Assembly: GCA_031406795.1 (NCBI GenBank)
Contig: JANOHV010000104.1
Span: forward strand, 1 to 32,905
Direction of reading: 5' to 3'
From: Candidatus Rokuibacteriota bacterium
GTDB taxonomy: Bacteria; JAUVQV01; DATDCY01
DNA length: 32,905 nucleotides
Shown here one piece after another: positions 2,722 to 10,890 of the stretch (the stretch's first letter is position 1; each line of letters opens with the position of its first letter). A program made the translations under genes and the position numbers. A model generated the notes under the pieces. It did not search any database. It had not been told where the DNA came from and worked only from the letters and a program-made list of their open reading frames with translations.

Positions 2722-3567
2722 TCACGAAGCGACCCGCGCGCCGGCGGGCGTGGGCAGCTCCGCGGGCGCGGCCGACGGCAGGTTTTCGAAGACCGTCTGG
2801 TACGAGACCACCGGGCAGGCGGTGCACTCCAGGCAACGGATGCAGTCCACCGAGCGCTCGTTCTGCCAGATGCTGATGTCCATCGGGCAGTTCTCGCGGC
2901 AGCGGTCGCAGCGCGTGCAGGAGCCGTGGTCGACGCGCATCTGGTAGACGCTGAAGGAGTTGAAAAACGAGAAGATGGTGCCGAGCGCGCAGGCCGTGCG
3001 ACAGAACGGCCGCTTCGCCGCGGCTGACCAGACGGCGAAGAGCGAGAGGATCGCGAGCTTGATGAAGAACATCTTCACCAACATCGCGCGGATGCTCTCG
3101 TCGAGCAGCGACCAGGGGATGCCGGCGATCAGGATGCCGTCGGGGCAGAGCTTCGAGAACCAGGGCTCCTGGGTGATCGCCGAGAGGGTGAAGACCAGGC
3201 CGGCGAGGACCAGGTACTTGGCGTAGGTCAAGGCCTTGGGGATGGCGATCTTGACGCTGCGCACCTTGTACAGCAGGTCCTGGAAGAAGCCGAACGGGCA
3301 GAGCCAGCCGCAGCACATCCGGCCGACGACGGCGCCGATGGCCGCCAGATAGCCCACCACGTAGGCCGGTATCGCCCCGCCGACGATCGCGAAGTGCTGG
3401 ATCGTGCCGATCGGGCACGCGAAAAGCGCGCCGGGGCAGGCGTAGCAGTTGAGCGTCGGGGTGCAGTACTCTTTGAGCGAGCCCTGGTAGATCGCCTTGT
3501 TGGTGAAGCCGAGCAGATACCCGTTCTGCCCGAACGTCGCGAGGATTTGAAAAAGTCGTCGTTTCAT
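2722..3567 (-). CDS. Membrane-bound 4Fe-4S binding protein (NapH/MauN/RdxA-like polyferredoxin)
   Basis: LNCYACPGALFACPIG, CCGWLCPFG, KLCPDG and PFCRTAC motifs among TM helices; C-terminal ferredoxin motifs CTRCDRCRENCP and CIRCLECTACP. Confidence 0.92.
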   Translation of the reverse strand: MKRRLFQILATFGQNGYLLGFTNKAIYQGSLKEYCTPTLNCYACPGALFACPIGTIQHFAIVGGAIPAYVVGYLAAIGAVVGRMCCGWLCPFGFFQDLLYKVRSVKIAIPKALTYAKYLVLAGLVFTLSAITQEPWFSKLCPDGILIAGIPWSLLDESIRAMLVKMFFIKLAILSLFAVWSAAAKRPFCRTACALGTIFSFFNSFSVYQMRVDHGSCTRCDRCRENCPMDISIWQNERSVDCIRCLECTACPVVSYQTVFENLPSAAPAELPTPAGARVAS

Positions 3568-3622
3568 GTCACCCGGGAATCGTCATCGCGCCGGCGACGC
3601 TAAATATTTGTTAGCCTTCACG

Positions 3623-3692
3623 CGGGAGGGTATGAAACCCTCCCCTACGACCCGGATCGTTGACGACGTAGGGGCGGGATTTATTCCCGCCC
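3623..3692. repeat. Inverted REP doublet (REPIN/BIME-like)
   Basis: cgggagggtatgaaaccctcccctac, spacer, gtaggggcgggatttattcccgccc. Confidence 0.85.
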
Positions 3693-3704
3693 AAAATCGC
3701 AACG

Positions 3705-3742
3705 GCATCGCGCTTTGTTGGGGGGTCAACCGACCCCGATGC
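3705..3742 (-). promoter_or_regulatory. Bacterial SECIS-like stem-loop
   Basis: 12 nt after the in-frame UGA (3752-3750): GGGGUC-GGUU-GACCCC (3737-3722), with an outer GCAUC/GAUGC pair. The apical loop starts with G and lies 18 nt from the UGA. Confidence 0.7.
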
Positions 3743-3875
3743 AGCTGAGTCAGACGAGTGTTGCATTGAAGAGCGTGTCGCCGATCTGATCGGCGAGCAC
3801 GCCCCAGACCAGCGCCCCGACCGCGAGCGCGGCGGCGACGATAGCGACGATCTTTTCCCGGCGGGGCCGATTCAT
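3726..3875 (-). CDS. Small membrane selenoprotein with UxxC motif (resembles CD1871A-like CxxC microproteins)
   Basis: MNRPRREKIVAIVAAALAVGALVWGVLADQIGDTLFNATLV-[TGA=U]-LSCIGVG*. One TM helix, a U-x-x-C-I-G-x-G terminus, a downstream SECIS-like hairpin, and a position directly upstream of a 4Fe-4S membrane protein. Confidence 0.8.
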
Positions 3876-3904: not shown

Positions 3905-5089
3905 CTAGACCTCATCCCCGGTCGAAGGGAGGTTCATCAGGATCTCCAGCGCGCGGCGGAAATCCGCGGACGCCCGTTTGAGATCCCCCCCCGCTTCGCT
4001 GCCCTGCGCCCGGCGGAAATAGGTGCCGGCGTCAAGCGGGTTGAGCTCGAGCGCGGCCTTGAACTTCTCCTCCGCGTCCGCGGACTTGCCCTGCCTGGCG
4101 AGCACGAGGGCCAAATTCGAGACCGCGGGCGTGTACGTCGGGTCCAACGCGACGGCCTTCTCGAAAGCCGCGAAGGCCTCGTCGATCTTCCCGAGCTCCA
4201 GCAGCGCCTCGCCCTTGCCGGTGTGCGCGGTCACGTCGTTCGGGGCGATCGCCGCCGCCGCGCTGAACTGTTCCGCGGCCTGCTGCACGCTCTTCGGGTC
4301 CTTCTTGGCGAGCAGCAGCTGGCCGAGGAACACGCGGGGGGCGGCGTAGGTAGGATCCGCCGCCGCGGCCAGTTCGAGCTGCTCCATGGCCTTGTCACGA
4401 TTGCCGCGCTGGAACATCGTGCGGCCGAAGTTGAAGTGCCGCAGCGCCTTCGAGTCGGGCTTGTAGACCGGCACGGCAGCCACGGCATCGGCCTTGGGCG
4501 CCTCGCGCACGCCGAGCAGGATCTCGACCGACTCGCGGATGCCCTCCCCGGTGGAGCGCAGGTAGCTCGCCGTCTCGTGGACGATCTTGCCCTCGGCGTT
4601 GATCACCGCGGTCGAGGGTGTCGCCACGACACCAAACGCGTTGTAGGTCTCGAGGCCGGCGTCGATCACGATCGGCACCGTGAGCTTGAGGCTCGTCTTG
4701 AGCTCCTCGATCTGCCGCCGGTCGTCCGGGCCGAGGCTCAGCCGGTTGACGTTTACCGCGAGAACCTGAAAGCCCTTGTCGGCATACTGGGTGGCGAGCT
4801 TCTGCGCGTCCTCGAGAGCCGGCGTCGAGCGCGGGCTCCAGGTGGCGAAGAACACCAGGAGCGTTGCCGGCTGCCCCTTGACCTGGGCGAGCGTGTACTC
4901 CTTCCCGTCGAGAGTCTTCAACGAGAACTCCGGCACTTCCATCCCGACCTTCAGGTATTTGAAGGCCGCCCCCGCCTGGGGGATGGCGAAGAGCATGACG
5001 AGCAGGGCTGCGAATCCCGTCAGTACGTGGGTCGCCGTGCGCCACCCCCGACGGGGCGCTGCGGCCGGCGGCGGACCTTGAAGCGGCAT
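3905..5089 (-). CDS. Exported TlpA/ResA-like thioredoxin-fold (SxxS, no active-site Cys) + TPR protein
   Basis: Signal peptide; PEFSLKTLDGK...LLVFFATWSPRS...FQVLAVN...FGVVATPST redoxin pattern; C-terminal TPRs; RBS AAGGAGGAG. Confidence 0.85.
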   Translation of the reverse strand: MPLQGPPPAAAPRRGWRTATHVLTGFAALLVMLFAIPQAGAAFKYLKVGMEVPEFSLKTLDGKEYTLAQVKGQPATLLVFFATWSPRSTPALEDAQKLATQYADKGFQVLAVNVNRLSLGPDDRRQIEELKTSLKLTVPIVIDAGLETYNAFGVVATPSTAVINAEGKIVHETASYLRSTGEGIRESVEILLGVREAPKADAVAAVPVYKPDSKALRHFNFGRTMFQRGNRDKAMEQLELAAAADPTYAAPRVFLGQLLLAKKDPKSVQQAAEQFSAAAAIAPNDVTAHTGKGEALLELGKIDEAFAAFEKAVALDPTYTPAVSNLALVLARQGKSADAEEKFKAALELNPLDAGTYFRRAQGSEAGGDLKRASADFRRALEILMNLPSTGDEV

Positions 5090-5101: not shown

Positions 5102-5782
5102 TCAGTAGAGCAGGAACTGTTTCTCGGAACCGTGCGGATTGTGGCACTCCGGACACTGCTTGCTCGCGCTCTTCTCGATGTGCGACTGGCTGCGGCTCTG
5201 GGCATGGCACTGCATGCACAGCGTCCGCACCCCCATGACCAGGAAGGCCGGGTTGGCCGAACCGTGCGGATCGTGGCAGATGCTGCACTGCCCGGCACCG
5301 AGCGGCCCGTGCAGGTACTTGTACCCGGTTTTCGGGTCGTGGCACGTGTTGCACAGCTTGGCCTCGGACACCGGCGAGGTCCGGCCGACGCCCTGCGGGT
5401 GACAGGCCTTGCACTCCCCTTCCTGGACCGGGTCGTGGTAGCGGTACGAGCGTCCCCCGGCGTCCTTGGTCTGGTACTCGAATGTCGACTGCCGGGATTC
5501 CGCCCCGGACTTGACCACCAGGGTGTTCTTGCCCGGGACAAGCGCGAGCGGGCCGGTGAACGCCTTCCCGACCTGTTTGATCCCGTCGACCTTGCGCCCG
5601 TTGAGCACGACCTCGAGCGTTCCCGAGGACCCGCTCCCGATCAGGGTCAGCGGCGAGCGATCGAGCGTGGCGCCATCCGGCGGGGCGAGGATCTTGAGCT
5701 CCTCGCCCGACGCGCCGCCGGCGGTGATCAGGGTTGCCGCCAGGACGACGCCGGCAACAGCGGCGGAACCGAATCGTTTCAT
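5102..5782 (-). CDS. Exported pentaheme cytochrome c with N-terminal beta-rich (Ig-like) domain
   Basis: Start moved to the ATG at 5782 (MKRFGSAAVAG, RBS GGAG). Motifs CKACH, CNTCH, CSICH, CMQCH, CPECH with HGP and CHxPHGS paired-CXXCH repeats. Confidence 0.92.
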   Translation of the reverse strand: MKRFGSAAVAGVVLAATLITAGGASGEELKILAPPDGATLDRSPLTLIGSGSSGTLEVVLNGRKVDGIKQVGKAFTGPLALVPGKNTLVVKSGAESRQSTFEYQTKDAGGRSYRYHDPVQEGECKACHPQGVGRTSPVSEAKLCNTCHDPKTGYKYLHGPLGAGQCSICHDPHGSANPAFLVMGVRTLCMQCHAQSRSQSHIEKSASKQCPECHNPHGSEKQFLLY

Positions 5783-5789
5783 GTCGCTC

Positions 5790-6785
5790 CTACTGCTTGC
5801 CGAAGAGCCGCGTGAGCGCCAGCTTGTAGCTCTCGACGGCCTTGGCGAGGTCGCCCTTCTTCTCATAGGCCTTCCCCATCTCGTAGTAGACTTTCTCGGG
5901 TTTGGGGTTCATCTTGATCGCCGACTGGAAATATTCGAGGGCCTTGTCCGTTTCGCCCTTCTTCGCGTGGGCCATGCCGAGGCCAACCTTGGCGTCGTTG
6001 CTGGTCGGGTCGCACTTGATGACGTAGGTGAACTCCCCGATCGCCTCGTCGACCTTGCCGTCGTCGAGAAAGGTGTGCCCGAGCAGGATGTGCGCATCGC
6101 AGAAGCCGGGGTCGAGCTTGAGGATCTCCTGAAGCTTCGCGACCGCCTTCTCCTTCATCCCGCGCTCCATCAGCACCATCGCGAGGCCGTACATCTTCTT
6201 GGCCTCCTTCTCCTCGGTGCTCGCCGCGGGGCCCTCCTGGGGGCGGATGGCGAGCTCGGCGTCCCCGGCCTTCTTCTCCCCGAGGGCCACCAGGGCGTAC
6301 TCGTTGGTGATCAGCTCGAGGTCAAAGGCGATCTGGTTCTCCTCGTGAATGAGCACGCCGGCCTTGTCGACCCAGATGACTTCGGGCATCGCCACGACGC
6401 CAAGCGTCCCGTAGAGCTCCTCGGTCCCCATCAGGATCGGAAAGCCCGCGCCTTCGGCGAGGGCCTTCGCGTCCTCGGCCTTGCCCTTGCCGAAGTAGAC
6501 GCCGAGGTAGACGACGCCCTTCTCCTTCATGGCCGCCCAACTCTTGCCGACGCGCTTGAACGCGTTGGCGGTGCTCGGGCCCTCCTTGAAGAAGACCATC
6601 ACGTGGGCCTGGCCCGGGGCGAAGCCGGCGTCGGCGCCGGCGGTGTCCTTGAGCGTGAACGCCGGCATCTTGTCGCCGTTCTTGACCTTGTTGAAACTCT
6701 GGGCCGGTGCGGCCAGCGCGATTAGCGCGGCCAGCGCGAAGATGGCCGGAAGGACCCGGGTGCGGTTCTTGATGCGGCTTGTCAT
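5790..6785 (-). CDS. Exported degenerate thioredoxin-fold (no CxxC) + TPR protein
   Basis: Signal peptide; VKNGDKMPAFTLKDTAG, VMVFFKEGPST in place of WCxxC, LGVVAMPEVIWVDK (cis-Pro loop); C-terminal TPRs. Confidence 0.8.
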   Translation of the reverse strand: MTSRIKNRTRVLPAIFALAALIALAAPAQSFNKVKNGDKMPAFTLKDTAGADAGFAPGQAHVMVFFKEGPSTANAFKRVGKSWAAMKEKGVVYLGVYFGKGKAEDAKALAEGAGFPILMGTEELYGTLGVVAMPEVIWVDKAGVLIHEENQIAFDLELITNEYALVALGEKKAGDAELAIRPQEGPAASTEEKEAKKMYGLAMVLMERGMKEKAVAKLQEILKLDPGFCDAHILLGHTFLDDGKVDEAIGEFTYVIKCDPTSNDAKVGLGMAHAKKGETDKALEYFQSAIKMNPKPEKVYYEMGKAYEKKGDLAKAVESYKLALTRLFGKQ

Positions 6786-6801
6786 GCTCAGCCTCCCCGC
6801 C

Positions 6802-8130
6802 CTAGTACTTGACCGCGGTCTCGCGGTCGTAGGTCTGCTCGCGGTGGCAGCCGACCACGCAATTGCCGCCCGTCGGCAGCTTCGTGAACTTGACCGGCAG
6901 CTGCCAGCCGCCGGTCCCGAAGGGAACCTTCTCGCGGATGTGCTTCTCCTGGTCGCCGGCGTGCATCTCGTGGCAGGCCTTGCAGCTGCGGCCCTTCTTC
7001 TGGTTGATGTGGAAGTAGTGCAGGTTGCGGTTGCCGTTGCGGAAACCGGTCAGCGTCGAGGTGACCTCGGTCAGCGCCATGTCCTTGTTGTGACAATCCC
7101 AGCAGATGGCGTAGTTCTCGGTCTTGTATTCCATGTAGAACTCGGGCGGGAAGAACTTCTTGAGGATCTTCACGTAGTCCGAGCCGTGCGTGTCGTGGCA
7201 GGCATAGCAGTCGTCCTGCTGGACCGGGCCGTGCAGCGACTTGGAGGCCAGCACCCGGGAACCGATGTCCTTGTGGCAGCTGTAGCAGATCTGCTTGGTC
7301 GAGAGCTTCAGCTGGCGCACATAGTCGGAGGAGTGCGGCGTGTGGCAGCCGGTGCAGGTGCCGCTCTTGAGCGCGCCGTGCTGGGTCTTGGCCTTCTTGA
7401 CGTGCTCCTGGACCTTCGAGTGGCAGGAGAAGCACAGCGCGGTCGGCTCGTTCTTGAGCAGGTACTTGTAGGCGCCGCTGTGGGAGTCGTGGCAGACGGA
7501 GCAGGACTCGGTGACCGGCTTGTGCACGCTCTTGCGGGTGAACTCGGCCTTGCGGTCCTCATGGCAGAGAAAGCACAGCGTGTTGCCGGAGGCCTCGAGC
7601 TGGTACTTGTAGTCCGAGGCGTGCGGGTTGTGGCAGACGTTGCAGTCGCCGGCGGCGACCGGGCCGTGGAGGAACTCCTTGTTCGTCTTGTTGTTCTCGT
7701 GGCAGGAGAAGCAGAGCGCGGAGGTCGTCGGCTTGCGCATCTGGAACTTCGCGTCGGACTGGTGGGGATCGTGACAGGCGATGCAGTCGCCCATCGCCAC
7801 CGGCCCGTGGATGAACTTGCCCTGCAGCTTCTTCTGGAGCGACTCGTGACAGATGAAACACAGGTCCTTGCCCTTGGCGGCGATCGTGAAGCTCGCCGAA
7901 CTGTGCTTCTCGGGGGTGTAGCTGGTGCGGGTGCGGTGGCAGGCGGTGCACACGCCGGCGCCGACCGGGCCGTGGACGTACTTGGCCTTGCCCATCCCCG
8001 GGTGGCACTTCTCGGAGAGACAGTTGTCGCCGCCCGGCGACTGTGCCCGAACGGGAACCGCGGCAAACAGCGCGGCTGCGACGAGCGCAATCAGGACGAA
8101 CAGCGTGTGGTGCAACTTGGTACCCTGCAT
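6802..8130 (-). CDS. Large exported multiheme cytochrome c (13 CxxCH + CX4CH + CX3CH; up to 15 hemes)
   Basis: Start moved to the ATG at 8130 (RBS AAAGGAGG). Signal peptide, repeated HGP(V)..CxxCHxxH..LCxxCH units, N-terminal CLSEKCH and C-terminal CVVGCH. Confidence 0.95.
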   Translation of the reverse strand: MQGTKLHHTLFVLIALVAAALFAAVPVRAQSPGGDNCLSEKCHPGMGKAKYVHGPVGAGVCTACHRTRTSYTPEKHSSASFTIAAKGKDLCFICHESLQKKLQGKFIHGPVAMGDCIACHDPHQSDAKFQMRKPTTSALCFSCHENNKTNKEFLHGPVAAGDCNVCHNPHASDYKYQLEASGNTLCFLCHEDRKAEFTRKSVHKPVTESCSVCHDSHSGAYKYLLKNEPTALCFSCHSKVQEHVKKAKTQHGALKSGTCTGCHTPHSSDYVRQLKLSTKQICYSCHKDIGSRVLASKSLHGPVQQDDCYACHDTHGSDYVKILKKFFPPEFYMEYKTENYAICWDCHNKDMALTEVTSTLTGFRNGNRNLHYFHINQKKGRSCKACHEMHAGDQEKHIREKVPFGTGGWQLPVKFTKLPTGGNCVVGCHREQTYDRETAVKY

Positions 8131-8228
8131 GTCGCAAGCCTCCTTTGTGCTACGAACCATCACGCATCTCCCGGTAGACCGCCAGGCCACTGCAAGCTCC
8201 CTCGCGCACCGCCGCGGTTCGTCTACGA

Positions 8229-9284
8229 TCAACCGTAGCTGTGGAGGCCCGAGAGCACGAAGTTCACGCCGATGTAGGTGAAGATCACCGCTGCGAAGCC
8301 GATCACCGAGAGGACCGCAGTGCTTTTGCCGCGCCACCCCGCGGTGAAGCGGGCATGCAGGAAGGCGGCGTAGATCAGCCAGGTGATCAGGGACCAGGTC
8401 TCCTTCGGGTCCCAGCTCCAGTAGGTGCCCCAGGCGTAATTGGCCCAGGCCGCGCCGGTCACGATGCCGAGCGTCAGCAGCGGAAAACCGACCATGATCA
8501 TCTTGTAACTCAGGTCATCGAGGATCCGCAGACCGGGGAACAGGGCGGCCAGGCGCTCGTGGTAGAGCGCGCCGACGTACCAGAACAGCGCGAAGATCCC
8601 GACGGCGGCGATCCAGGAGACGATCTTCACCCCCGAGGAGTGGCTCGCGAACGAGGCCGCGAACAGATGCGGCTGGGCCACGCCCGCGACTTTCTGCACG
8701 AGGAAGTCCAGCATCGTGGCGGCGAACAGCGTGAACATCGTCACCAGGCTCGCCATGCCGACGACATAGAAGGCGTCCTTGCGCTTCTCCGCCGAGAGAA
8801 TCAGGTAGAGGATGCTGACCCCGAAGGATATCGTGAAGGCGGCATAGCCGAGAAAGCTGGTGATGACGTGCACGGTGAGCCAGTTGCTCTGGAGCGCCGG
8901 CACGAGCGGCTCGATCTCCTGCGAGATGTTCGGCGCGATGGAGATCGACGCAATCGCCAGGAAGCCCAGCGGCGCGGCGACGACGCCGAGCGCCCGATTG
9001 CGGTAGACCCGTTCGAAAATCAGGTAGATCAGGATGATCGACCAGGACCAGAAGACCATCGACTCGTACATGTTGGAGAGCGGGATGTGCCCGAACCCCA
9101 TGGCGTAGGATTCGCGCCAGCGCAGACCGATGGCCGCGGTCTGCACCAGAAACCCGACGACGGTCACCAGGGTCGCCGCCAGGCCGACCTTTTCGTTGCG
9201 GAAGGCCAGGTAGACGAAGTACGCCACCGTCGCCACGAGGTACAACACGAGCGATACGTTGAAGACCGCCGAACTGTTCATCAT
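8229..9284 (-). CDS. ccsA: Cytochrome c biogenesis system II heme channel/synthase subunit (ResC/CcsA; named CcsB in some annotation schemes)
   Basis: GHIPLSNMYES, LVPALQSNWLTVHV, WWD motif WGTYWSWDPKETW, C-terminal GLHSYG. Confidence 0.95.
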   Translation of the reverse strand: MMNSSAVFNVSLVLYLVATVAYFVYLAFRNEKVGLAATLVTVVGFLVQTAAIGLRWRESYAMGFGHIPLSNMYESMVFWSWSIILIYLIFERVYRNRALGVVAAPLGFLAIASISIAPNISQEIEPLVPALQSNWLTVHVITSFLGYAAFTISFGVSILYLILSAEKRKDAFYVVGMASLVTMFTLFAATMLDFLVQKVAGVAQPHLFAASFASHSSGVKIVSWIAAVGIFALFWYVGALYHERLAALFPGLRILDDLSYKMIMVGFPLLTLGIVTGAAWANYAWGTYWSWDPKETWSLITWLIYAAFLHARFTAGWRGKSTAVLSVIGFAAVIFTYIGVNFVLSGLHSYG

Positions 9285-9359
9285 TCTCTCCGGGTCCCTG
9301 AATCCAGATGGCCGTTCGTTATTTCTAGCACAAACCCCATGCCCCTGCCAAGGAGCTCG

Positions 9360-10850
9360 CTAGCCGCGGGCCTCACCCACGGCATGGATCGCGTCGCCGA
9401 GACGCTCGAACTCCTCGGTGAAGCGCTCGCGATTCTTGTTGGCGTTGCCCGCGAGCAGCACCTCCGTCTTGCCGCCGACCTCCCGCAGCCGCACCCAGAC
9501 CCGGCGGTGCGAGGAGAAGAAGGCGAACCAGAGCCCGAAGACCATCAGCGTGCAGCCGGCCCAGATCACCCAGACCCCGGGGTCGTAGACGACCTGGAGC
9601 CCCGTGTACTGCAGGCTGCTGAAGTCGACGAGCGTCAGATCGACCGGCAGGCCCGCGACCGTCTTGAGGTCGGGCCGGAGCTTGAAGAGATAGGTCAGCT
9701 TGCTCGTGCCGTCGGGGAGCAGCACCTGAACCGCGGCCACGGGGTTCTTCGCCTGGTTCGAGCGGCTGGTCGGCCGCCCCTGTTCGTCCTGCGCGAAGTC
9801 CGGGAAGATCCGCTGCATCTGCAGCCGCACGCCCGTCCCCGGGACTTCGAGGGTTTCGCTCCCGGTGAAGCTCAGGTCGTGCCCGGCGCCGGTCTTGAGG
9901 TCCACGGCGCGGATGCTCGCCTTGAGCCCGCGCCCGGTGTCGCCGAAGCTCGACTGGTAGAACCAGATCCCGTCGTATTGCAGCGGTGTGTTGACCTCGA
10001 TCCGCACAGCGGGCAACTCCTTGCCCTGGTCGATGACGGTGAGCGTGCTGAAAAAGTCCTTCGGCCGCTGTCCGCCCGGGTAGTAGTCCACCTGGAAGTC
10101 GTCGCAGCGCACCTTGAACGGCAGGGTCGCCATCCGGCTCTCGTCGCCGCGCATCATGATCTGGTCGGAGGTTTCCCCCTCCGTGATCTGCATGTAGGCC
10201 TTGAAGCCGTAAACGCTGCCGAGGAGGCCGCCGACGAAGATCATGATGATGGAAAAGTGCGTCGCATAGATGCCGAGCCGGCTGTAGGCGCCCTTTTGCC
10301 CGAAGAGGTAGAACGCGTCGTCGCGGTCGCTCTCGCGCTTGCCGAAGCCGCCCTTTTTCAGCGCGGCGGCAGCGACCGCGGCGGCCTCCGCCCGCGGCAG
10401 GCGCAGCGAGAGGGTGCGGCGATTGGGGCTGGCCTTGAAGCCGGACTCCTCGAGTTCGACCTTGGGGCGCGCCATGATCCGCCAGGTCTGCGGCAGGCGG
10501 CGCAGAGAACAGACGATCAGGCTGGTGCTGAGCAGGCCGAGCAGCGCATAGAAGTACCAGGTCTGATAGAGATGGAAAAAGCCAATGCGTTCCGAGATGT
10601 CGAATGCCCGCTGCGCGCGGCCCGCGTCGCCGAAGAAATCCTGGAACAGGCGCAGGTTGTCGGCGACTTCCCCGATGTTTTTCTGCTGCAACACGGTGCC
10701 GATGATCGAGATCGACGCGAGGATGATCAGGGTGACGACCGCGACGTGGACCGAGCTGAAGAACGAGAGCAGCGGGTCGTACCACGGCTTCGTGACGACG
10801 GCCGGCGGGGCGTCTGCGGGCGGGGGGGAAGTCTGTTTTTCCTCAACCAC
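9360..10850 (-). CDS. resB: Cytochrome c biogenesis system II protein ResB/Ccs1
   Basis: SIIGTVLQQ, Y.TWYF..LL...SLIVCS, THFS, VNTPL.YDGI.FYQSS, GLQVVYDPG, HRRVWV. Start placed at GTG 10850 behind AAGGAGAG; the ORF track uses 10871. Confidence 0.93.
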   Translation of the reverse strand: MVEEKQTSPPPADAPPAVVTKPWYDPLLSFFSSVHVAVVTLIILASISIIGTVLQQKNIGEVADNLRLFQDFFGDAGRAQRAFDISERIGFFHLYQTWYFYALLGLLSTSLIVCSLRRLPQTWRIMARPKVELEESGFKASPNRRTLSLRLPRAEAAAVAAAALKKGGFGKRESDRDDAFYLFGQKGAYSRLGIYATHFSIIMIFVGGLLGSVYGFKAYMQITEGETSDQIMMRGDESRMATLPFKVRCDDFQVDYYPGGQRPKDFFSTLTVIDQGKELPAVRIEVNTPLQYDGIWFYQSSFGDTGRGLKASIRAVDLKTGAGHDLSFTGSETLEVPGTGVRLQMQRIFPDFAQDEQGRPTSRSNQAKNPVAAVQVLLPDGTSKLTYLFKLRPDLKTVAGLPVDLTLVDFSSLQYTGLQVVYDPGVWVIWAGCTLMVFGLWFAFFSSHRRVWVRLREVGGKTEVLLAGNANKNRERFTEEFERLGDAIHAVGEARG

Positions 10851-10890
10851 GGGGGGGGACTCTCCTTGCATTCACGGTTGCCGTAAAGCA

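Follow-up and report, generated by a model that had tools for sequence, protein, structure and literature searches.

Within the 32,905-nucleotide stretch of Candidatus Rokuibacteriota DNA analysed here (contig JANOHV010000104.1 of assembly GCA_031406795.1; hereafter the window), a small open reading frame (ORF) on the minus strand very probably encodes a 49-residue selenoprotein, in which the UGA of codon 42 is read as selenocysteine (Sec, U). A preliminary description of this DNA had reported a 49-residue ORF with an in-frame TGA and had interpreted its product as a membrane selenoprotein; the observation is confirmed by the sequence comparisons given below, and the interpretation is supported by them. 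Comparison of related DNA shows a predicted recoding signal, a pairing of Cys and Sec forms at the same position, a link to a known peptide family and a conserved gene pair, formed by the peptide gene and the gene of an adjoining membrane iron-sulfur (Fe-S) protein. The gene neighbourhood and published work on related Fe-S modules further suggest that the two proteins might form an electron relay. The account as a whole, that is, selenoprotein identity by comparison together with a relay put forward as a proposal, appears likely to us.

Reading frame and conservation through the in-frame TGA

The small ORF starts with an ATG at 3875-3873, runs through MNRPRREKIVAIVAAALAVGALVWGVLADQIGDTLFNATLV to a TGA at 3752-3750, continues with LSCIGVG and ends at another TGA (3728-3726). 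Without this stop, the 49 codons of the selenopeptide occupy 3729..3875 on the minus strand, and the translation agrees, letter for letter, with the ORF previously described at 3726-3875. The statement that the 49-residue form is missing from the ORF track also proved correct, as the ORF list made with table 11 holds the 41-residue form alone (3750..3875). The in-frame TGA (3750..3752, minus strand) is codon 42 and takes the first position of a UxxC motif, creating U-L-S-C as had been proposed; the terminal TGA (3726..3728, minus strand) is the true stop and lies within a hairpin. The peptide consists of a basic N-terminus (MNRPRREK), one hydrophobic helix at about residues 9-27, and a tail, DQIGDTLFNATLV-U-LSC-IGVG. 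Its hydropathy maximum of 2.66 belongs to the 19-residue stretch that starts at residue 9, which is the only hydrophobic stretch present. The N-terminus has four Arg/Lys and a single Glu, and the tail carries a net negative charge; from this distribution of charges, the positive-inside rule predicts an N-in/C-out topology that would place the UxxC tail outside the membrane or at its outer face.

To follow the gene past the in-frame TGA, we aligned 22 DNA copies of the Sec form (20 distinct rows) over 36 nt: the window, two genomes of the same genus, and 19 metagenome contigs. The metagenome copies had been retrieved with an alignment of residues 1-41 only (patterns GDTLFNAT, MNRP...), and the sequence past codon 41 was therefore free of selection by the search. 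Codon 42 and codon 50 are both TGA in 22/22 aligned copies, and the TGA of codon 42 is also kept in one genome from another family (L026). Between the two, codons 43-49 are written in 17 codon spellings (CTC/CTT; AGC/AGT/TCC/TCT/TCG/TCA; TGC/TGT; ATC/ATA; GGG/GGA; GTC; GGT/GGG), which all give the same seven residues with zero amino-acid changes; the other-family genome adds the spelling CTG. The serine codon, which lies outside the hairpin, switches between AGY and TCN, and judging from the alignment this switch would be explicable only by selection on the protein. Conservation stops beyond the second TGA, where the reading frames are not conserved and the copies diverge into several unrelated sequences.

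A word-index search of 5.8 billion proteins yielded 47 homologues, which have residues 1-41 in common and all end at valine-41; 46 of them are 41 residues long, while one has 46 residues with a longer N-terminus. Homologues that end at residue 41 had been named beforehand as an outcome that would speak against a selenoprotein. The called homologues do end there (47/47), because gene callers stop at TGA, but the DNA behind them conserves LSCIGVG. A scan of JGI metagenome contigs gave 20 loci, 19 of which read V-TGA-LSCIGVG-TGA; the twentieth (L049), with 55% identity over residues 1-30, contains no such ORF and was dropped as a false match. A genome search over the order and the phylum covered six species genomes, including the window's own (G000), and found the locus, with a single in-frame TGA each time, in four of them: the window's own genome, two congeneric ones and one from a different family. 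A third congeneric genome has a contig that begins inside the downstream Fe-S gene, and the peptide gene falls off the contig end; in the sixth genome (another family, 92% complete) neither the peptide nor the Fe-S gene was found with the queries used. The possibility of a sequencing error, also raised beforehand, is excluded by the presence of the TGA in all 23 independent assemblies.

The copy in the other-family genome (G005:C3, ~1011150-1011400) has an intact tail, ...FNATLV-TGA-LSCIGVG-TGA, and its hydrophobic N-terminal part lies in another frame; the break is either an assembly indel or a real frameshift.

A hairpin of the SECIS type

The TGA had been said to be followed by a hairpin resembling a selenocysteine insertion sequence (SECIS); such a hairpin is present, covaries, and fits the bacterial SECIS (bSECIS) model. 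In the window it occupies 3721..3738 on the minus strand, with a 6 bp core (3737-3732/3727-3722), a GGUU loop (3731-3728) and an optional seventh pair (3738/3721). It begins 12 nt past the UGA and reads GGGGUC-GGUU-GACCCC (3737-3722), the family form being GGRGUC-GGKU-GAYYCC. The 5' arm corresponds to codons 47-48 and the loop to codon 49 plus the initial base of the stop; the other two stop-codon bases open the 3' arm. The terminal UGA is thus partly loop and partly 3' arm, which accounts for the stop always being TGA. No T-run follows the hairpin, and in this it is unlike a terminator.

On the alignment, 94.3% of cells are paired, compared to 32-56% for slid partners. At the third pair (18-29), 10 rows have A-U, 9 have G-C and 1 has G-U, and none is unpaired; the flanking seventh pair is A-U in 6 rows, C-G in 6 and unpaired in 8. 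Covariation is therefore seen fully for one pair and partly for a second. When the 33 nt that follow the UGA are folded, the hairpin is part of the minimum-energy structure in 22/22 copies, with energies of -8.9 to -12.8 kcal/mol. A 66-nt piece of the window, folded by itself, lacked the hairpin and scored no better than shuffled sequences (z -0.47), while a shorter stretch and the alignment both gave it. As outlined in the main text of a May 2026 review (PMC13188914), the bSECIS model has a loop of 3-9 nt, a stem of 4-16 bp, a UGA-to-loop distance of 16-37 nt and a minimum free energy of at most -7.5 kcal/mol, and its loop opens with two G, after which G or U is usual. All 22 copies agree with this outline, having a GGUU or GGGU loop, 6-7 bp, a spacing of 18 nt and an energy in range.

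Selenocysteine machinery in the genome

The genome to which the window belongs is 99.9% complete, in 278 contigs. The preliminary description had proposed to look for selABCD, and all four were found, SelB in part: a tRNA-Sec (69.2 bits, over the Rfam cut-off) with anticodon TCA, a SelA (541 bits) whose gene extends as far as the end of contig C93, and a SelD (G000:C234:8400-9320, L051; 351 bits). The SelD gene has its own in-frame TGA, by which SelD of this genome is itself a predicted selenoprotein. SelB is represented by its C-terminal part alone (profile positions 158-580, 130 bits, below the full-length cut-off), located at the start of contig C88; selA and selB probably form one locus that was split by the assembly. 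TGA also acts as an ordinary stop in the window: the Pfam-supported genes of CcsA, the Fe-S protein and one cytochrome end with it, and it is the stop of 12 of the 17 long ORFs.

Cysteine homologues and the CD1871A family

We searched 1.84 billion cluster representatives (E up to 0.001) with a profile of 21 read-through sequences, in which U was written as C, and obtained 18 matches. Twelve of these span to the profile end as ...NA[TVCS]x[LIV]-C-[LF]-[SE]-C-I-G-[IMLV]-[GQK], a Cys standing in the TGA column; the suggestion that the TGA stands at the first Cys of a CxxC is hence borne out by homologues that place Cys exactly at codon 42. Four others (P0049, P0053, P0062 and P0065; 43-61% identical, the cluster of P0065 having 16 members) end at ...[ES][ST]LFNATLV, and going by their sequences they are probably further Sec lineages outside the clade of the window. 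The remaining two are P0019, a 41-residue form already known from the word-index search, and P0059, a protein of 1536 residues matched over 23 of them, which was set aside. A cluster look-up of the truncated and the Cys forms returned only the name 'hypothetical protein'.

A resemblance to small CD1871A-like peptides that precede a 4Fe-4S protein was part of the original proposal, and it holds for the Cys homologues: NF040920, the CD1871A model, is the best NCBIfam family for 10/10 of those tested, with three above the cut-off (36.6, 32.1 and 43.6 bits), and a Fer4_5 gene lies downstream in 17/21 Cys-form loci. The window peptide itself (U as C) scores 14.3 bits against NF040920 (E 0.028), below the cut-off of 32, and a genome-wide search with the model did not pick up the peptide locus. 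The alignment to the model is end to end, with window residues 13-49 on model positions 2-38. An hhalign comparison of the Sec family with the Cys forms that pass the cut-off gave 98.8% probability over 46 columns, which is a consistency check and not an independent test, the Cys set itself having been found with the Sec profile. CD1871A peptides have about 40-60 residues, one hydrophobic helix, a C-terminal C-x-x-C-I-G-x-G and a Fer4_5 gene downstream; the window product is likewise a small single-helix peptide (49 residues) with U-L-S-C near its end, but it has Sec for the first Cys, and its FNATLV block and SECIS hairpin are specific to its clade. We conclude that the peptide is, by its predicted sequence, a diverged Sec-bearing relative of CD1871A (NF040920), and not a member by the curated threshold.

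To obtain the 21 Cys-form loci (L055-L075), 185,579 species genomes were scanned for a pattern containing CLSCI, and the invariance of the motif among them is thus by construction. Their hosts are Cloacimonadota, Syntrophorhabdaceae and other metagenome-assembled genomes labelled Deltaproteobacteria, Anaerolineae/Chloroflexota, Armatimonadia, Thermodesulfobacterium, Dictyoglomaceae, and others.

The adjoining Fe-S protein

The gene that follows the small ORF after 158 nt (2722..3567, minus strand) encodes a NapH-like membrane polyferredoxin of 281 residues (Pfam Fer4_5 41.7 bits, cut-off 22). Its score against the NapH/MauN model TIGR02163 is 50 bits at a cut-off of 213, and we therefore call it NapH-like and not NapH. 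The protein contains Fer4_5, two C-terminal 4Fe-4S motifs and two motifs of the CX3CP type, CGWLCP and FCRxxCP (FCRTACA in the Sec lineage), and has additional NCYACP-x5-CP and KLCP motifs whose Cys columns are invariant in the alignments. Its ESM Atlas matches are confined to generic clusters named '4Fe-4S binding' and one that bears the label Mad6. Against the PDB, a profile search returned ferredoxin domains only and nothing for the membrane part, and an AlphaFold2 model built on a 16-row alignment was unusable (mean predicted local distance difference test score 43.8).

An orthologue of this protein (38-56% identical) is encoded within ~150 nt downstream of the peptide, on the same strand, in 17 of the 21 Cys-form loci; among the other four, one contig ends 336 nt on, and L059, L064 and L071 have other genes at this place. 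For the Sec form, the orthologue lies directly downstream in 19/22 other loci, or 20/23 when the window is counted. Two of the three exceptions are contigs that end within 50 nt, and the third is the other-family genome G005, where the Fe-S gene is found 3.4 kb downstream. Complex predictions for the Cys-form peptide and the Fe-S protein of L062 gave 0.31, 0.27 and 0.20 at a mark of 0.32, a result that counts neither way.

Cytochrome c cluster and cysteine-free thioredoxin-fold neighbours

The peptide/Fe-S pair forms the end of a minus-strand run of ResB, CcsA and cytochrome genes. Directly upstream, 29 nt from the small ORF, is the gene of a membrane-anchored thioredoxin-fold (Redoxin/AhpC-TSA) protein with tetratricopeptide repeats (TPR) at 3905..5089 (minus strand), which contains no cysteine and has WSPRS at the WCxxC site. 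The rest of the same-strand cluster (5102..10871, minus strand, assigned by Pfam) consists of a multihaem cytochrome (5102-5866), a second thioredoxin-like/TPR protein (AhpC-TSA plus TPR) without CxxC (5790-6785), another multihaem cytochrome (6802-8337), CcsA (8229-9284; Cytochrom_C_asm 184 bits) and ResB (9360-10871; ResB 343 bits), all on the minus strand; Paired_CXXCH_1 is among the Pfam matches there. WSPRS takes the place of the ResA/TlpA WCxxC in 13/13 Sec-lineage loci that cover the motif, the other-family genome included, and this conservation indicates that the first thioredoxin-fold/TPR protein is not a decayed gene. The corresponding redoxins of the Cys-form lineages retain WCxxC. 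As the cysteine loss concerns one lineage, it is an observation and not a correlation.

Upstream genes of the Cys forms were typed by blastp clustering of all ORFs and Pfam searches on 1-3 representatives per group. Directly upstream of the 21 peptides, we found ResB plus CcsA in five loci, a membrane-anchored redoxin with WCPPC, WCAPC or WCTPC in six, and a c554-like cytochrome in three.

Taken as longest ORFs, both multihaem cytochrome genes of the window run into the gene that precedes them, 5102-5866/5790-6785 by 77 nt and 6802-8337/8229-9284 by 109 nt; the true cytochrome starts are probably internal Met codons just ahead of signal-anchor-like hydrophobic stretches.

A possible electron relay and the alternatives

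We suggest the following course of events. SelB and the hairpin 12 nt downstream would recode UGA-42 as selenocysteine, and translation would continue for seven codons through the hairpin and terminate at the second UGA in the 3' arm. The product would be a single-pass membrane peptide with its basic N-terminus inside and its U-L-S-C-I-G-V-G tail outside or at the outer face, and could serve as a small subunit of the adjoining NapH-like 4Fe-4S membrane protein. The Fe-S protein would carry electrons across the membrane from a cytoplasmic donor or from quinol, and the selenenylsulfide/selenol-thiol pair of the peptide may pass them on as a thiol-disulfide reductant. Possible recipients are the CxxCH sites of apocytochrome c or, where the Cys form occurs, a thioredoxin of the ResA kind. 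In the lineage of the window, given that the thioredoxin-fold/TPR neighbours lack both cysteines, the Sec peptide may be the terminal reductant, and the Cys-less proteins may be mere substrate holders.

According to the passages on this module in PMC8238504 and PMC5928378, the NapH-like PF12801 module (NapH, NosR, RdhC) is a modular transmembrane electron-transfer unit for extracytosolic redox partners. Based on this and on the neighbourhood, a relay from the Fe-S protein through the peptide to envelope disulfides, in the service of cytochrome c maturation, is a tentative proposal whose chances we put a little short of even. A role in the maturation of apocytochromes had been suggested from the predicted topology, and the gene neighbourhood (ResB/CcsA, ResA-like redoxins, cytochromes) backs it. 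We regard as rather unlikely a bolder version, in which the pair would be an undescribed CcdA-independent reductant route for System II cytochromes c and envelope thioredoxins, and in which the Sec peptide replaced the ResA/TlpA chemistry before the cysteines were lost (WSPRS).

Several points weigh against these readings. All Sec copies come from one small clade (their peptides are 68-100% identical) and are kin rather than independent samples. The peptide stays below the NF040920 cut-off (14.3 vs 32 bits), and its locus is missed by the genome-wide search with that model. Three Cys-form loci (L059, L064 and L071) have enough downstream DNA and yet no adjoining Fe-S gene, and three others (L061, L065 and L073) lie among housekeeping genes (FtsY, SMC, IspD, SecDF etc.). 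The organism that gave CD1871A its name is not known to have c-type cytochromes, and the general role of the family would then not be cytochrome-specific. Finally, the genome has four DsbD_TM/CcdA-type matches, and the standard reductant route is accordingly not missing. The idea of the pair as a substitute for a missing CcdA was dropped for this genome on account of these four DsbD_TM matches; among five Cys-form genomes, two have a DsbD_TM match and three are without one, at a genome completeness that was not established.

A second reading keeps the selenoprotein and its NapH-like partner but has the U/CxxC tail bind or reduce a metal in place of a thiol-disulfide relay, either by reduction of Cu(II)/Fe(III) or by coordinating an Fe-S centre together with the four invariant cysteines of the partner; we consider it improbable. 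The four extra invariant Cys of the partner (NCYACP...CP and KLCP) would suit such a role, CcoG is among the weak NCBIfam matches of the Fe-S protein, and some loci are without cytochrome or thioredoxin context. The peptide and its partner would then resemble CcoG, a polyferredoxin and cupric reductase encoded near CcoS, a small single-pass protein, and JGI labels some of the 41-residue homologues 'nitrogen fixation-related uncharacterized protein', which we take to be a FixS/CcoS label. The match to Pfam FixS (PF03597), however, amounts to 11.7 bits (E 0.22) and extends over the hydrophobic helix at residues 9-30 only; identity with FixS/CcoS was rejected at the gathering cut-off of 23.1 bits. 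Moreover, the upstream genes in 14/21 Cys-form loci belong to cytochrome c biogenesis, WCxxC redoxins and cytochromes, and not to copper or iron handling, and in the family table of PMC13188914 the replacement of Cys by Sec in UxxC/CxxC usually marks thiol oxidoreductases. In favour of the metal reading, PMC5928378 describes the role of the CX3CP motif as unsettled between disulfide and cluster.

That the product ends at UGA-42 with 41 residues, and that the conserved 30 nt are an RNA element, for example one that tunes translation of the Fe-S gene, seems very improbable to us. The 47/47 database entries called as ending at residue 41 agree with it, and the hairpin is real and lies just ahead of the Fe-S gene start in most relatives; but codons 43-46 are outside the hairpin and vary synonymously only, the AGY/TCN serine switch included, in other phyla the Cys homologues continue as protein over these residues to the same CIGxG end, and the 41-residue form would be without the one motif that defines the family. 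Hardly credible, finally, is readthrough of UGA-42 without selenium, by near-cognate insertion of Cys or Trp or by lineage-wide reassignment of TGA: while the inserted residue is not deducible from sequence alone, TGA ends the peptide gene itself as well as the other window genes listed above, the genome has the Sec machinery and a SelD gene with an in-frame TGA of its own, and the hairpin matches a SECIS in position and loop.

Relation to known systems

The nearest parallel among selenoproteins is with the thiol-disulfide families of the UxxC kind in the table of PMC13188914 (Sec-thioredoxin, UGC-containing TlpA, and WAxxUGC NF041054), which likewise have Sec for the first Cys, Cys homologues and a SECIS downstream. 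They resemble the window case in setting as well, being located in the cell envelope and near cytochrome c biogenesis genes. In contrast to them, the window product has no thioredoxin fold and is a single-pass peptide whose motif sits on a tail of 22 residues. The thioredoxin-fold/TPR neighbour is a weak match to NF041054 (50 bits, cut-off 300) and is without Cys or Sec. In the UXX-star and KCU-star selenoproteins, Sec is very near the C-terminus and the SECIS reaches or passes the stop codon; the window peptide has its Sec eight codons ahead of a stop that itself lies within the hairpin, and the families are unrelated.

With the CcdA/DsbD-ResA route of System II, the pair would by analogy share the delivery of reductant to CxxCH sites, and it does share the company of ResB, CcsA and ResA-like redoxin genes. 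Unlike that route, the pair has no DsbD_TM fold, and electrons would travel via Fe-S clusters/CX3CP rather than via a Cys pair in a transporter-like fold. The Fe-S protein resembles NapH, NosR and RdhC (PceC) in its Fer4_5, CX3CP and two C-terminal 4Fe-4S motifs; it differs in that its putative outside partner is a U/CxxC peptide and not a flavinylated FMN domain or NapG, and it differs from NapH in its extra invariant NCYACP...CP and KLCP, the NapH model lying out of reach of its score.

In the 119-row selenoprotein family table of PMC13188914 we found no matching entry. Neither NF040920 nor 'CD1871' appears in the main text of that review or of the BSepDB paper (PMC13326102), the BSepDB and deep-Sep supplements lying outside the scope of this comparison; a full-text literature search for 'CD1871A' returned no paper, and we found no published function for the family. 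By sequence comparison, the finding is a new predicted selenoprotein family of the usual Cys-to-Sec kind, and one that gene callers have shortened in every called copy. Its 49 residues and the stop inside the SECIS hairpin would make it a convenient small system in which to study how Sec is inserted close to a terminator. For the unstudied CD1871A-type peptides, the existence of both Cys and Sec forms points to a redox-active CxxC, and the finding gives a functional lead for a widespread peptide/NapH-like pair. The conserved order of ResB/CcsA, ResA-like redoxin or cytochrome, peptide and NapH-like Fe-S protein suggests an Fe-S-driven envelope reductant route that can be tested, and the parallel loss of cysteines in the thioredoxin-fold neighbours may serve as a natural experiment on which protein does the chemistry.

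Coverage in RNA libraries and the spacer before the Fe-S gene

Contigs from RNA libraries of two studies cover the small ORF; contigs do not demonstrate a transcript, DNA carry-over is possible, and they are not counted as evidence of expression. One of them (X6, 348 nt, from a relative) extends from the start of the Fe-S gene across the complete small ORF into the end of the thioredoxin-fold/TPR gene. The spacer between the peptide and Fe-S genes (3568..3725, minus strand) holds two palindromes resembling repetitive extragenic palindromes (REP), at 3622-3649 and 3663-3695; in close relatives this spacer measures just ~9-17 nt. In the contigs from runs X6 and X17, 3567-3725 (or 3567-3722) is missing, with nine other letters in between.

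GC-rich REP-like palindromes of two kinds (GCGGGAGGG..CCCTCCCCTACG and GTAGGGGCGGGATTYATTCCCGCCC) occur in intergenic spacers. Their positions in the window are 2490-2518, 2608-2636 and 3622-3649, and 2677-2709 and 3663-3695. One pair of them constitutes a 157-nt insert between the peptide and Fe-S genes, which is absent in close relatives and in the X6 and X17 contigs.

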